A stretch of DNA of 32,000 nt from Aciduliprofundum boonei T469 (GCF_000025665.1 NC_013926.1:750001-782000), one strand, 5' to 3'; positions 6,867 to 11,180 are shown, numbered from the stretch's first letter. Notes: generated from the letters alone by a model not told the origin. Made by a program: numbers and translations.

Positions 6867-9800
6867 ATGAACGAAAGAAGTATGAAGAAAATATTGTTAG
6901 TGACTTTAGTGTTAGCAGCGATGGTACTCAGTGGCTTTTCAGTGATGTCCGGGAATGCTGCTGCGGCAGCTCCCAAAGTTTCAGCAGCCAATAACGGTAA
7001 TCTAGTGGTAGCTTTTCAGAATGACATATCAAACCTGAACATATTTGACCCAACAACGAACACTGTTTGGAAAGCTGATGCTCTTGGGTGGGCATTTGAG
7101 AGTCTGTATTCTTATACTCCGGACTTAATACCCTATCCAAACTTGGCATTGAGTGCCACGCCTGACGCAAGTGGCTTGAATGTAACTGTTCAGCTAAGGC
7201 ACAATGTGACTTTCCAAGATGGACAGCCAATGACCGCAGAGGATGTTGTATTTAGTTATCAGACCTTGTATTGGGATTCTCTGTATAAGACAACCCTTCA
7301 GTGCCTTTACTGGCCCACTCCTAAGTGGCCTCTTTGGAATGGAAATGGCACATCCCACATAGGTGTTGTTGCCACAGGCAAATACACTGTTGTCTTCCAT
7401 CTATATCAACCATATCCTCTGTTCTATCAGGTTACACTTGGTAATACTATCATACCCGAGCACATATGGGTAAAGCACTTGGTATCTGCAGGTACAGGTG
7501 ATAGTGATGATATGACAATAGATACATCTTGGAATGCTCCAGGAGCAACTATTGGTACTGGTCCATTTAAGTTTGTAGAATGGAAGCCAGGTAACTATGT
7601 GAAGATTGAAGTTTACAAGAATTACTGGGGTAAGGGACTGTCTACTCCATGGAGAGGTAAAAATTGGCCTTGGTATCCCGAGTATGTGAGAACAATAACA
7701 TTCAGAATTTACAACACCTTGGATACTGCAGTTCTTGCACTGAAGAGAGGTGAGGTTCAGTTTATTGACTGGTCATTGCCTCCAGGCTATTATAACCAGT
7801 TGAAGACTGATCCAAATATAGGTGCTACAATTGTTAATGACCAGGGGTTCTTCTATTTGGCATTCAATATGAGAAAAGAGCCCATGAGCGATTTGGCCTT
7901 CAGGACCGCTGTTGCCCACTGTATTAATAAGGACTACATAGTGACTACCCTTATGCAGGGTTATGGTACGAAGGGTACCGTGCCTATATCAATTACATCT
8001 GGTGCATATGTCAATACATCTGCTATACCCCCAGGTTTCGATTTGAATGCTGCTCAGCAGGTTCTTGACCAAGCGGGCTATAAAGTTGGCTCTGATGGTT
8101 GGAGACACGCCCCAGATGGCTCACCAATTAAGGAGACAATTCTCACGCCGCCAAAGGATTACGATCCTATAAGGGCTGAAGCTGGCATAATGATACAGGC
8201 AAACCTTCAGAAAGTAAAATTGAATATTCAGAGTATTCCTACAAACTTTGATACGATAGTTTCAAAGGCATTCGTGCAGGTGCAGTTCGATATGTACATC
8301 CTTGGATGGGGTGTCGGTGCATTCCCTGAGACATACCTCGAGGACTTCTTTGCAAGCTGGAATGCAGCACCTGTTGGTGATAACACACCTGGTTACCACA
8401 ATCCTAAGGTGGATAAATTGCTCATTGAGATTAGAACAGATATGAACACTCAGGATAGAATTAACAAGATTAAGGAGATTGAAGGCATATTGGTGCATGA
8501 TTTGCCTTACGATGTGCTTTATTACAGAAAGAACATAATGGCTTACAGGCAGGATATGTGGCAGGGCTGGGTTGCAGCCTATGGTACTATTTGGAATGGA
8601 TTCTCACTTGGCGTACTCCATCCGCCGACATCTGGAGGCGGCGGTGGAGGCGGTGGCGGTGGCCACCACCCAGGACCTATAACTAATGTTACAGGGAGTG
8701 GATTAGTTGGTGCAGTTGGACATCTTTATACCCCTAACATAGCGTATGCTGGGCACTCTATAAATGGAGTATTCTATCTCACTGATCAGAATGGCATTCC
8801 TATCCCTAATGCAAAGGTTAGCATCTATGCATCCAATGGAGTATGGGCAAATGGCACCACTGGCAGCTCGGGTGGACTTGCATTTAATGTGCCTCTGAAG
8901 TTCGAGGATTATGGTAAAGTGAATATTACATATTCTTATTCGGTTAAAATTGGGGGCCATGTGTATAATGGCTCCGGTACGAACTCTGTAACCGTTTACC
9001 TGCCAAAGAATGTTGCAAAGCTGAAGCTAAGTATTGATAAGCCAATACTTACCCCTGGTGCAAGTGCTACTATTACTGCCAAAGTTACTGACATCTACGC
9101 TCATCCACTTGCGGGAGTGAATGTTACCATACTCTCAGAAGAGACCTCTGGTTCTATAACACCAGGTTATGGTATAACAAATAGTGATGGTATTGCCACA
9201 TTCCATTACACTGCACCAACGATGGTAACTAACATAAATCCTGTAGATATAGTAAAGGCCCAGATTAAGGTCAACAACACAATACTAACAAATCTACAGA
9301 CTGCCACTCTCTTCGTTCCAATACAGAGCCATGGAAGCAGCTGGTACAAGGTGCAGATAACTCATGTGAGCAGTTATGGAATAACTGCTGGTCAGAGTAC
9401 CCAAGTAACCGTTAAGGTTGTGAATATAAATGGAAATCCTGTGGCAAATCATAAGGTTTATATGGCCGCCTACTACTCAAATGCAACTGATCCTAACTGG
9501 TATGGCCAGCAGCTCGTACCTGCATGGGGAATAACAATGGATTCAAATGAAAAGACAACAGATAGCAATGGTGAGGCGACTTTCACCATAACTGCAAATG
9601 AGAACGCAAATATTCCTGTGATATTAAAGGCTTACACACAGGATACTTATATGGCGTATGACACTGTGCAGATTTATGTAGGTAACAATACTGGCTTTGA
9701 TCCTTACATTGGTCCTTGGACTGGCTTGTATGCAATGGATATGCAGCTCAACAAGGTAACTGCTGGTGTTGGACAGCAGGTGCAGGTTACAATGACTGTA

Positions 9801-11180
9801 TATAATGCAGCCACAGGTGCACCGCTGCCAAATGCTACAGTGTTCATGGCCGTATTCGGTACTGATTATGGATTCGGTGCTGATTGGGCAAACAATGTAG
9901 GTACATATGTATGGTGGGCAGGCCAGAGTGTTATCTGGGGAACAACTGATGCAAATGGTCAGTTTAGCTACACATTGAACACAAGTGCCCTTAGGGCAGA
10001 TCAGCCCATCTATGTAAGCGGTTGGATGGATGCATATGGGTATGGAGCCAATGCTATATGGACTGGTCTTGGATTTGACTTCCCGTACCTCTTTGGCGTG
10101 AAGGATGGCTTCATACTTCAGAGAGCACCAATAATGGGTATATCTAACATAATGGTTAACGAGTTCTATCTAAGTAACTCTCTGTGGACTACAATGATGA
10201 CCTTGAAGGTTGTTGATATCAATGGTCCTCTAGCTAATGTTACAGTGTCTGCTGATTGGACTCTTGGTAACTATGAAAATAACATAAATGTAACCACTAA
10301 TGCTCAGGGTATTGCTCAGTTTAATATAACAATAGAGCCAACAACGGCAGATAGTATTGTATCTGTCTCAATTATGCTCTCCTCGCCTGACCATGCAATG
10401 AATCTCAACTATGAGTACTATATACCATTCTTATCAGGAGCATCACAGCTTTCAAAGATACAAACATTTGACTGTGTGAAAATATTAACTGAATCCTCGA
10501 ATGTAGGTCTAGTGCCTTACGAAGGAAAGGCAACTATTAGATTGCATCTTATAGGAGGACTTTTGGGAACACCTATTTCAGGTGAACAAGTACATCTTTA
10601 TGTACCAGCAGGTACATTAGACAATTCTAGCGTGTTTACTGATGAAAATGGTACAGCGGTATTTACATACAATGCTCCCGATGTACTTACACCAAAACAT
10701 TATGTTTTCGTTGCAACTACCCCTGAAGGTGGAATATACTTCTTCGGAGTGGAAGTTGCTGGCAAATACAACAATACCTTAGAATGGGCTAATGAAATTA
10801 ACAGCCTTAATCAGAAGATTGCAGACCAGAGCTCACAGATACAGGATCTACAGAACAAGTACAATAATCTCAATACCGAATACAAGAACTTGCAGGACAA
10901 GTATAATAGCTTGCAGACAAACTACACAAATCTAGGCAAGCAGAAAGATAATGCAGTGACAATGCAGTATGTATGGCTCTCTCTGTTCATCATAATGATA
11001 ATCATAGCAATAGTGATGTACTATGCAGGCAAGAAGAGCGGAGCAAAGAGTGCACCTAGTGAAGAAGAGAGTACAGAAGAGGAAATCGAGGAAGAAGAGG
11101 AGCCTACAGAAGAAATAGAGGAAGAAACCGAAGAGGGCTCTGAGGAAGAGACCTCAGAGGAGGAAAATACAGAGGAGTAA
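6867..11180 (+). CDS. Giant surface protein with a family-5 (peptide/nickel type) solute-binding domain on an Ig-like stalk
   Basis: Domain order along the 1437 aa:
- aa 1-35: signal peptide (MKKILLVTLVLAAMVLSGFSVMSGNAAAAA).
- aa ~44-585: SBP_bac_5-like (LVVAFQNDISNLNIFDP...LALSATPDASGLNVTVQLRHNVTFQDGQPMTAEDVVFSY).
- aa 590-599: G10 hinge.
- aa ~605-1298: six repeats of about 115-130 aa. Each carries a T[DN]xxGxAxF signature, at aa 639, 771, 898, 1027, 1144 and 1258.
- aa 1311-1359: seven heptads.
- aa ~1366-1388: TM helix followed by KK.
- The last 40 aa contain 26 Glu.

There are about 20 N-x-S/T sequons. SD GGGAGGA lies 8 nt upstream of the ATG. Confidence 0.85.
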   Translation: MNERSMKKILLVTLVLAAMVLSGFSVMSGNAAAAAPKVSAANNGNLVVAFQNDISNLNIFDPTTNTVWKADALGWAFESLYSYTPDLIPYPNLALSATPDASGLNVTVQLRHNVTFQDGQPMTAEDVVFSYQTLYWDSLYKTTLQCLYWPTPKWPLWNGNGTSHIGVVATGKYTVVFHLYQPYPLFYQVTLGNTIIPEHIWVKHLVSAGTGDSDDMTIDTSWNAPGATIGTGPFKFVEWKPGNYVKIEVYKNYWGKGLSTPWRGKNWPWYPEYVRTITFRIYNTLDTAVLALKRGEVQFIDWSLPPGYYNQLKTDPNIGATIVNDQGFFYLAFNMRKEPMSDLAFRTAVAHCINKDYIVTTLMQGYGTKGTVPISITSGAYVNTSAIPPGFDLNAAQQVLDQAGYKVGSDGWRHAPDGSPIKETILTPPKDYDPIRAEAGIMIQANLQKVKLNIQSIPTNFDTIVSKAFVQVQFDMYILGWGVGAFPETYLEDFFASWNAAPVGDNTPGYHNPKVDKLLIEIRTDMNTQDRINKIKEIEGILVHDLPYDVLYYRKNIMAYRQDMWQGWVAAYGTIWNGFSLGVLHPPTSGGGGGGGGGGHHPGPITNVTGSGLVGAVGHLYTPNIAYAGHSINGVFYLTDQNGIPIPNAKVSIYASNGVWANGTTGSSGGLAFNVPLKFEDYGKVNITYSYSVKIGGHVYNGSGTNSVTVYLPKNVAKLKLSIDKPILTPGASATITAKVTDIYAHPLAGVNVTILSEETSGSITPGYGITNSDGIATFHYTAPTMVTNINPVDIVKAQIKVNNTILTNLQTATLFVPIQSHGSSWYKVQITHVSSYGITAGQSTQVTVKVVNINGNPVANHKVYMAAYYSNATDPNWYGQQLVPAWGITMDSNEKTTDSNGEATFTITANENANIPVILKAYTQDTYMAYDTVQIYVGNNTGFDPYIGPWTGLYAMDMQLNKVTAGVGQQVQVTMTVYNAATGAPLPNATVFMAVFGTDYGFGADWANNVGTYVWWAGQSVIWGTTDANGQFSYTLNTSALRADQPIYVSGWMDAYGYGANAIWTGLGFDFPYLFGVKDGFILQRAPIMGISNIMVNEFYLSNSLWTTMMTLKVVDINGPLANVTVSADWTLGNYENNINVTTNAQGIAQFNITIEPTTADSIVSVSIMLSSPDHAMNLNYEYYIPFLSGASQLSKIQTFDCVKILTESSNVGLVPYEGKATIRLHLIGGLLGTPISGEQVHLYVPAGTLDNSSVFTDENGTAVFTYNAPDVLTPKHYVFVATTPEGGIYFFGVEVAGKYNNTLEWANEINSLNQKIADQSSQIQDLQNKYNNLNTEYKNLQDKYNSLQTNYTNLGKQKDNAVTMQYVWLSLFIIMIIIAIVMYYAGKKSGAKSAPSEEESTEEEIEEEEEPTEEIEEETEEGSEEETSEEENTEE
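8634..8663 (+). repeat. In-frame (GGN)10 simple repeat encoding a Gly10 hinge
   Basis: The sequence gga ggc ggc ggt gga ggc ggt ggc ggt ggc is read directly from the window. It is flanked by PPTS and HHPGP. Confidence 0.95.

Follow-up and report, generated by a model that had tools for sequence, protein, structure and literature searches.

A 32,000-nucleotide (nt) stretch of the Aciduliprofundum boonei T469 genome (NC_013926.1:750001-782000), referred to in its full length as the window, carries at 6867..11180 on the plus strand a 1437-amino-acid (aa) open reading frame (ORF), without interruption, for a predicted solute-binding protein (SBP) on a long folded stalk. From the N- to the C-terminus, the product comprises a signal peptide, a complete SBP_bac_5 domain, a run of ten glycines (Gly10), six beta-sandwich domains, a heptad coiled coil, one transmembrane (TM) helix and an acidic tail. 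The identical protein is found in an A. boonei T469 scaffold (GCA_000151085.1) and in the assembly of the mock community SRR606249, which we take to include A. boonei T469. Its parts lie as follows, with the basis of each call in parentheses:

6867..6968, plus strand: Sec-type signal peptide, about aa 1-34, with a hydrophobic stretch at aa 6-29 followed by GNAAAAAP (called from hydropathy)
6969..8633, plus strand: family-5 (Opp/Dpp/Nik-type) solute-binding head, aa 35-589 (PF00496; AppA 1xoc; NCBIfam)
8634..8714, plus strand: Gly10 run, aa 590-599, and short linker to aa 616 (sequence)
8715..10757, plus strand: stalk of six beta-sandwich (Big_1/MG-like) domains (Pfam, AlphaFold2 (AF2), Foldseek)
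10776..10949, plus strand: heptad coiled-coil neck (a = I/Y, d = L), aa 1304-1361 (AF2 helix; heptad pattern)
10950..11033, plus strand: C-terminal TM helix, aa 1362-1389 (hydropathy)
11034..11180, plus strand: acidic tail of 48 aa, presumably cytoplasmic, and stop codon (sequence; disordered in AF2)

Full-length homology over both lobes identifies the head as a family-5 (cluster C) SBP. The Pfam profile SBP_bac_5 (PF00496) matches aa 89-499 with an E-value of 5.5e-72 (243 bits against a cut-off of 32.4) and is covered from position 2 to position 365 of its 368, so that the domain is complete. Bacillus subtilis AppA (1xoc) aligns with aa 59-564 of the head (E 5e-33), and ~75 further solved family-5 binding proteins align with it, in each case by sequence only. 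These matches bear out the complete peptide/nickel-type binding domain that the initial annotation, made from the DNA sequence, had placed behind the signal peptide; profile hidden Markov model (HMM) searches of the kind it proposed put SBP_bac_5 on the head and Big_1, MG4, bMG3 and CarboxypepD_reg on the stalk, all above their cut-offs. A hydrophobic, signal-like N-terminal segment is also present in most of the listed homologs, which points to an extracytoplasmic protein here and across the family. The head is the most conserved part of the protein and is better conserved than the stalk in all comparisons, with identities of 97 vs 82% in the closest relative, 70 vs 54% at middle distance and 50-52 vs 25-26% in distant members.

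The stalk is predicted to be a chain of folded domains. AF2 modeling of aa 600-1437 from a 39-sequence alignment gave a mean predicted local distance difference test (pLDDT) of 86.4 and a predicted TM-score (pTM) of 0.70, with an all-beta structure up to aa 1297 and a stalk pLDDT mostly above 90; the pTM suggests that the domains adopt some defined arrangement. From the strand pattern of the model, six domains of ~95-130 aa can be counted, with approximate limits at aa 617-711, 718-819, 827-938, 955-1084, 1090-1190 and 1195-1297. On the stalk, the Pfam profiles Big_1 (five stretches, 71 bits, cut-off 34.9) and MG4 (three stretches, 74 bits, cut-off 24.7) match, as do bMG3 and CarboxypepD_reg, and four copies of the strict motif T[DNST]xxGx[AV]x[FV] are found (aa 771, 898, 1144 and 1258), besides looser ones near aa 665 and 1027. 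Across the family the Gly10 run ahead of these domains is not kept; it occurs in the closest relatives only, with lengths of 10, 10 and 6 Gly.

Searched against the PDB with Foldseek, the stalk model retrieves MG/Ig-like arrays (alpha2-macroglobulins, complement C3-C5, CD109 and hydin) at E-values of 1e-17 to 1e-21, at TM-scores of only 0.12-0.20, so that the fold of the single domain is common to the stalk and these arrays and the overall layout is not. The same matches, together with the Pfam hits to MG4, bMG3 and Big_1, might suggest an alpha2-macroglobulin-like protease trap or an invasin/intimin-type adhesin. We find either identity scarcely credible, however, as the global TM-scores are so low, the N-terminal 590 aa are an SBP, and neither a beta-barrel nor a LysM anchor is present. 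Against the trap, the Pfam search finds no thioester, bait-region or A2M family and the sequence holds no CGEQ motif, and it is effectively rejected.

C-terminal to the stalk, AF2 predicts one continuous helix over aa 1304-1384, in which the heptad coiled coil runs into the TM segment; the closest homolog has a heptad score of 0.81. Only members of the DHVE2-like clade possess the coiled-coil neck and a strongly acidic tail; in the rest of the family the beta domains reach the TM helix. The short tail has a low-complexity sequence that varies between homologs. The protein holds 21 N-x-S/T sequons (the initial annotation had counted about 20), 15 of them in aa 601-1300 and four in the head, at a density of 1.58 per 100 aa vs 0.29 in ten other proteins of the window (five times); compared with composition-matched shuffles (14.9 +/- 3.5, p ~0.05), the excess is modest. 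Three cysteines are present in aa 36-1361. The glycine hinge, six Ig-like repeats, coiled-coil neck, TM helix and acidic tail described in the initial annotation could thus each be recovered by sequence, Pfam or AF2, the proposed AlphaFold check on the repeats returning an all-beta stalk of six domains, and from the domain count its placement of the head tens of nm from the membrane is plausible. If the stalk is extended, six domains of ~3.5-4 nm each and a coiled coil of ~9 nm would hold the head 25-35 nm out.

This architecture is not an orphan, as had been proposed, but a Thermoplasmatota-wide plan. A protein search returned 203 relatives, and more than 100 protein clusters combine the head, an Ig-like stalk and a C-terminal TM helix, all of them from Thermoplasmatota. 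Nearly all of the 120 relatives listed are 1200-2200 aa long and carry PF00496 together with Big_1, MG4 or CARDB; the names, where NCBI or JGI assigns any, are mostly "ABC transporter substrate-binding protein", and almost all full-length members end in one TM helix followed by a short tail. A scan of one genome per species yielded 64 loci, again all in Thermoplasmatota (Aciduliprofundum, DHVE2 and metagenome-assembled genomes labelled Thermoplasmata, Methanomassiliicoccales or Methanobacteriota), with up to 3-4 copies in some genomes. The homolog search covered clusters other than the query's own and the scan covered genomes other than A. boonei, so that A. boonei paralogs and ATPases lie outside these counts.

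The stalk itself appears to be specific to this family. A word-index search with the stalk as the only query retrieved family members, one probable fragment, two weak beta-helix proteins and nothing else, and HMMER, run exhaustively against 1.84 billion representatives, gave 55 matches (13 at E <= 1e-10), of which the long ones match after a head of ~600 aa. A role of the stalk as a generic display module for other heads was considered and rejected, since both searches return essentially family members only, plus fragments and weak Ig-repeat matches. Far larger members also exist, with ORFs of 2359-2940 aa (L027, 9776-18598; L064, 6997-14643; L067, 148-7227); two of these three lack permease genes within 5 kb downstream and may form a sub-class with a different role.

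In 25 of the 64 loci, oppB starts directly downstream of the SBP gene, usually after ~120 bp, and is succeeded by an oversized oppC and ATPase genes; these loci belong to the more distant members (27-42% identity). Here the OppB-like proteins measure either ~330-400 aa or 660-700 aa and the OppC-like proteins 731-798 aa, the latter being split or truncated in two loci, and the lengths of the ATPase ORFs are inflated through overlapping frames. In five more loci the same series runs into a contig end or follows a gap; the OppC of one of these measures 1082 aa. A Pfam scan of one locus found oligo_HPY in both of its ATPases. The large OppC proteins consist of OppC_N (TM1), an insert of ~450-800 aa and BPD_transp_1, with matches to the PQQ_2 propeller in two of the three scanned, and the large OppB proteins contain Ig-like, Y_Y_Y or PKD matches. 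Enlarged SBPs thus co-occur with enlarged permease ectodomains; in a control, limited to a single locus, an OppC of normal size (340 aa) shares its operon with an SBP that is likewise normal (591 aa). A lone oppB/oppC pair at L078 (7025-10166), whose OppC-like protein bears a PQQ-type propeller, lies on a bacterial-looking contig (Lgt, PlsY and FHA/PP2C genes), and propeller-bearing Opp permeases are therefore not limited to archaea.

In the DHVE2/Aciduliprofundum clade, the corresponding genes are scattered. No Opp/Dpp-type permease or ATPase gene occurs in the 32,000-nt window, as had been stated from the sequence, and its sole ABC genes are an ABC-2-type pair at 29927-31646 that is not of the Opp/Dpp type. 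The position of the SBP gene between a GT4 glycosyltransferase gene and pheT is kept in orthologs of 58-82% identity, and among the five clade loci whose downstream sequence is long enough, permease genes adjoin it directly in none (0/5). In a syntenic DHVE2 genome, a long permease pair (535 + 611 aa) lies 2.7 kb downstream of the SBP gene, between the genes for an SSB-like and a KaiC protein, an interval that spans only 155 bp in the A. boonei window. Two tandem KaiC-like ATPase genes of the window (13915-15389) adjoin this site. In other members of the clade, homologous pairs stand alone as two-gene units, accompanied by neither an SBP nor an ATPase gene; in Aciduliprofundum sp. S145_39, such a lone pair and an SBP ortholog (77% identical) are found on separate contigs. 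Isolated pairs of ~530 + 614 aa also occur at L001/L020 (16952-20391) and L075 (8412-11845) and at L007, L009 and L010; within the DHVE2 clade such long oppB/oppC pairs occupy at least three genomic contexts, never with an adjacent ATPase gene.

A. boonei T469 itself encodes a matching pair. A 614-aa OppC-like protein (ADD08729.1 / WP_012997260.1), found via cluster membership, is encoded in its 1,486,778-bp genome, and on an SRR606249 contig with the identical protein it is accompanied by a 530-aa OppB-like partner between polB and a radical-SAM gene; on this contig, no SBP or ATPase gene stands beside the pair. In NCBIfam, both long permeases fall into the Opp/Nik/Dpp B and C families, with scores that stay under the equivalog cut-offs.

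A model of the DHVE2 OppC and the sequence of its OppB partner indicate what their additional length consists of. An AF2 model of the 611-aa DHVE2 OppC ortholog P0121, which is ~47% identical to the cluster of the A. boonei protein, has a pLDDT of 87.7 and shows TM1, an all-beta domain at aa 57-371 and five TM helices. In Foldseek searches, the beta domain matches BamB-type eight-bladed propellers (TM-score ~0.66), and the membrane part matches DppC/OppC of the solved Escherichia coli and Mycobacterium tuberculosis transporters (TM-score 0.67-0.74, 28-30% identity). We therefore model DHVE2 OppC as carrying an eight-bladed beta-propeller in the outer loop between TM1 and TM2. Its OppB-like partner possesses an extra signal-like segment, an N-terminal ectodomain of ~175 aa that is rich in N-glycosylation sites and contains an EF-hand-like DxNxDG loop, and one more TM helix. 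When an HMM was built from the DHVE2 OppC insert, it matched the OppC proteins of ~780 aa only in the conserved segment before TM2. The inserts of DHVE2 OppC and of the large OppC proteins share their position and a propeller-type fold, with a common origin not supported by sequence.

Taking the family and the permeases together, we consider it likely that the 1437-aa ORF is the binding subunit of a dispersed, Thermoplasmatota-specific "tall" importer of the Opp/Dpp type (PepT-type) with enlarged outer parts. As a plausible mechanism, the SBP and the long A. boonei oppB/oppC pair would cooperate, and the genes of their Opp-type ATPases would lie at a third site; the glycosylated stalk would set or orient the head within or atop a cell-envelope layer, and the head would dock on the propeller-decorated face of the permease. 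If the head docks in this way, the stalk would have to be bent, tilted or laid sideways; otherwise the hand-over would differ from that in known ABC importers. The ligands are probably oligopeptides, because A. boonei is known as a peptide fermenter.

Several observations weigh against this assignment. The SBP gene and the long permease pair are unlinked in A. boonei, and their putative partnership is drawn from the linkage seen in the family and from the lone pair in the same genome. When oppBCDF-like genes without an SBP of their own were sought, as the initial annotation had proposed, the permease half was found (the ADD08729.1 pair) and the ATPase partners in A. boonei, which lies outside the genome scan, were not located. 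The conserved palindrome ahead of the SBP gene (see below), or any similar motif, does not occur upstream of the A. boonei permease pair. The head of an extended stalk would stand far above the ~5-nm-tall propeller, and docking would need a special geometry. On the head, NCBIfam scores NikA, Opp4A, DppA and OppA at 45-98 bits, all below their equivalog cut-offs of 393-1005. Finally, the context survey used our own six-frame ORF calls and phmmer searches with Opp-type permease and ABC ATPase queries rather than curated annotation, and no permease genes were found near the SBP gene in ~8 non-DHVE2 loci whose sequence continues for 3 kb or more downstream.

These ~8 loci, together with the absence of Opp genes from the window, would also be expected if the protein were a transporter-independent module for capture, adhesion or sensing with its head beyond the surface layer (S-layer), as the initial annotation had it; the extended stalk and coiled coil would hold the head far from the membrane, and the acidic cytoplasmic tail could signal or dock. 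We regard such a module as quite improbable. The 25 loci, and the five partial ones, tie related SBPs to oppB, oppC and ATPase genes, and A. boonei itself encodes a matching permease pair that lacks an adjacent SBP gene, both of which weigh against a function outside transport; no kinase, methyl-accepting or other signalling domain is found in the protein or its neighbours, and the tail is short, of low complexity and variable. That the family is a permease-linked class, routinely named as ABC transporter SBPs, is moreover an outcome that the initial annotation had itself set against its reading.

An alternative with a stronger footing, which we nevertheless hold to be unlikely, is that the protein is primarily structural, forming an S-layer stalk or canopy or an exterior protein layer, with the SBP head as an outward decoration that may also feed a transporter. 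The succession of beta-sandwich domains, coiled coil and C-terminal TM helix resembles the plan of S-layer stalk proteins of Sulfolobales, most of the 21 sequons fall in the stalk, a GT4 gene is conserved next to the SBP gene, and the strongly conserved promoter and 5' leader with their strong Shine-Dalgarno sequence would likewise suit an envelope protein. Against a structural role, the S-layer genes of A. boonei were reportedly predicted elsewhere, by Reysenbach and Flores in 2008, neither a Pfam S-layer domain in the protein nor an S-layer protein among the top 50 Foldseek matches was found, the stalk evolves faster than the head, and some genomes hold 3-4 paralogs, several with their own permease operon, which fits nutrient-specific transporters better than a single lattice protein. 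Two published surfaces are compatible with the structural alternative: Thermoplasmatales cells bear a ~20-nm-thick exterior protein layer whose composition was not identified (PMC12448462), and an SBP is dominant among the surface glycoproteins of the Asgard archaeon Promethearchaeum, where an S-layer protein went undetected (PMC11284389).

The tall importer and an envelope layer might also be parts of one arrangement, which we put forward tentatively and with our own expectation leaning against it. An undescribed Thermoplasmatota form of Opp-type importer would then reach across a cell-envelope layer, its heads carried at or above the S-layer or exterior protein layer on rigid glycosylated stalks that, in Aciduliprofundum, would be joined as dimers or trimers via the coiled coil. 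The OppC propeller and the OppB ectodomain would form the dock, and the substrate would be handed over by a swing or bend of the stalk or by a relay found in no known ABC importer; the stalked SBPs might make up much of the 20-nm exterior layer of wall-less Thermoplasmatales.

Compared with established Opp/Dpp/App systems, the head is homologous over its full length to their SBPs (B. subtilis AppA, E. coli DppA/OppA and M. tuberculosis OppA), and the wider family keeps the gene order SBP, oppB, oppC and two ATPase genes. Unlike those SBPs, however, the A. boonei protein has ~850 extra C-terminal residues (six Ig/MG-like domains, coiled coil, TM helix and acidic tail), and the permeases differ as well, with a ~340-aa propeller in OppC, where other members have an insert of ~450 aa and one member an insert of ~780 aa, and with an extra signal peptide/TM segment plus ectodomain in OppB; in Aciduliprofundum, the genes are also scattered. 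Archaeal tethered SBPs for sugars and peptides, as in Sulfolobus and Pyrococcus, are held by a short Ser/Thr-rich linker and a TM anchor. The A. boonei protein resembles them in being extracellular and glycosylated (predicted here from sequons), with a single-TM tether and a family-5 head, whereas its tether is ~680 aa of folded beta-sandwich, plus a coiled coil in this clade, and its presumed permeases have ectodomains.

Among archaeal S-layer proteins, coiled-coil/TM stalks are known from SlaB of Sulfolobales and tetrabrachion of Staphylothermus, and Ig-like-domain glycoproteins from Haloferax (csg). With these the A. boonei protein shares Ig-like arrays, heptads suggesting a parallel coiled coil, a C-terminal anchor and many sequons; it differs in that no sequence or fold match to them was found with Pfam or Foldseek, its distal domain is an SBP, and the coiled coil occurs only in the DHVE2-like clade. 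The eight-bladed fold of the OppC insert (TM-score ~0.66) and the PQQ_2 matches in larger OppC proteins recall BamB propellers; here, by contrast, the propeller is inserted in the outer loop of an archaeal ABC permease, with no tie to outer-membrane protein assembly. No description of a stalked SBP or of the enlarged-permease architecture was found in the full-text literature searched, an absence that is not in itself proof.

In known ABC importers, a freely diffusing or short-tethered SBP docks directly on its permease. An archaeal phylum with SBPs on stalks of 700-1500 aa and with enlarged permeases presents a case in which either hand-over over tens of nm or a folded-back stalk needs explaining. 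The stalked SBP family could also contribute to the dense surface protein layer seen by cryo-electron tomography (cryo-ET) on Thermoplasmatales. As A. boonei T469 is in culture, cryo-ET, surface proteomics and ligand screens are feasible. For annotation, caution is advisable, as "orphan" SBPs and "orphan" permease pairs in these genomes may be one dispersed transporter.

Upstream of the SBP gene, the window contains the following features:

5826..6762, plus strand: insertion sequence (IS) of 937 bp with a DDE_Tnp_1 transposase ORF at 5876-6706 (Pfam; sequence; alignment with IS-free loci)
6777..6784, plus strand: TATA-like box TTTATATA with an A-rich tract just 5' (invariant across six orthologous loci)
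6814..6842, plus strand: palindrome/hairpin CACTCC(T/C)CTAT-N6-ATAG(A/G)(A/T)GGAGTG, between the TATA box and the Shine-Dalgarno sequence (conserved)

On the basis of established archaeal promoter architecture, the box TTTATATA would be a promoter element of the SBP gene, which is also preceded by a strong Shine-Dalgarno sequence. The region from the TATA box to the ATG (~105 nt; region 6765-6866) shows 85% identity among orthologs, against only 58-82% for the encoded proteins. RNAalifold folds the palindrome into 13 pairs with one bulge, one pair changing from U-A to C-G in three of the six sequences, and the pattern was seen only upstream of SBP orthologs; an Rfam scan of the window gave no match, the palindrome included. 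It could be either a candidate operator near the expected transcription start or a stem-loop of the 5' leader.

The IS is flanked by an 8-bp target duplication, GATTTTTC, at 5818-5825 and 6763-6770, its terminal inverted repeats are imperfect, and its insertion point is separated by a few bp from the downstream A-rich tract and TATA box, which belong to the SBP gene. The IS spares the core promoter of that gene but separates it from upstream sequence. The insertion is recent, because the orthologous loci L011, L013, L015 and L020 are without the IS, and it is not part of the transport system.

The IS, a glycosyltransferase and pheT had been named as neighbours of the SBP gene, and the fuller inventory agrees: upstream lie genes for a rhomboid protein, RtcA, PAC2, CTP synthase, the divergent GT4 glycosyltransferase and the IS transposase, and downstream pheT and genes for a SLOG protein, the SSB-like protein and the two KaiC-like ATPases. 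The GT4 gene (4636-5763, minus strand), which diverges from the SBP gene, keeps its place beside it in every orthologous locus of the DHVE2 clade examined; its product could glycosylate the stalk, or the adjacency could be mere conserved gene order. Farther along the window, the G+C content rises to 0.47-0.50 at 19000-23300 from ~0.39 elsewhere, over a cluster of NuoE-like, NuoF-like and molybdopterin-oxidoreductase (formate-dehydrogenase-like) genes, a rise for which horizontal acquisition or an expression-linked bias in composition may be responsible.

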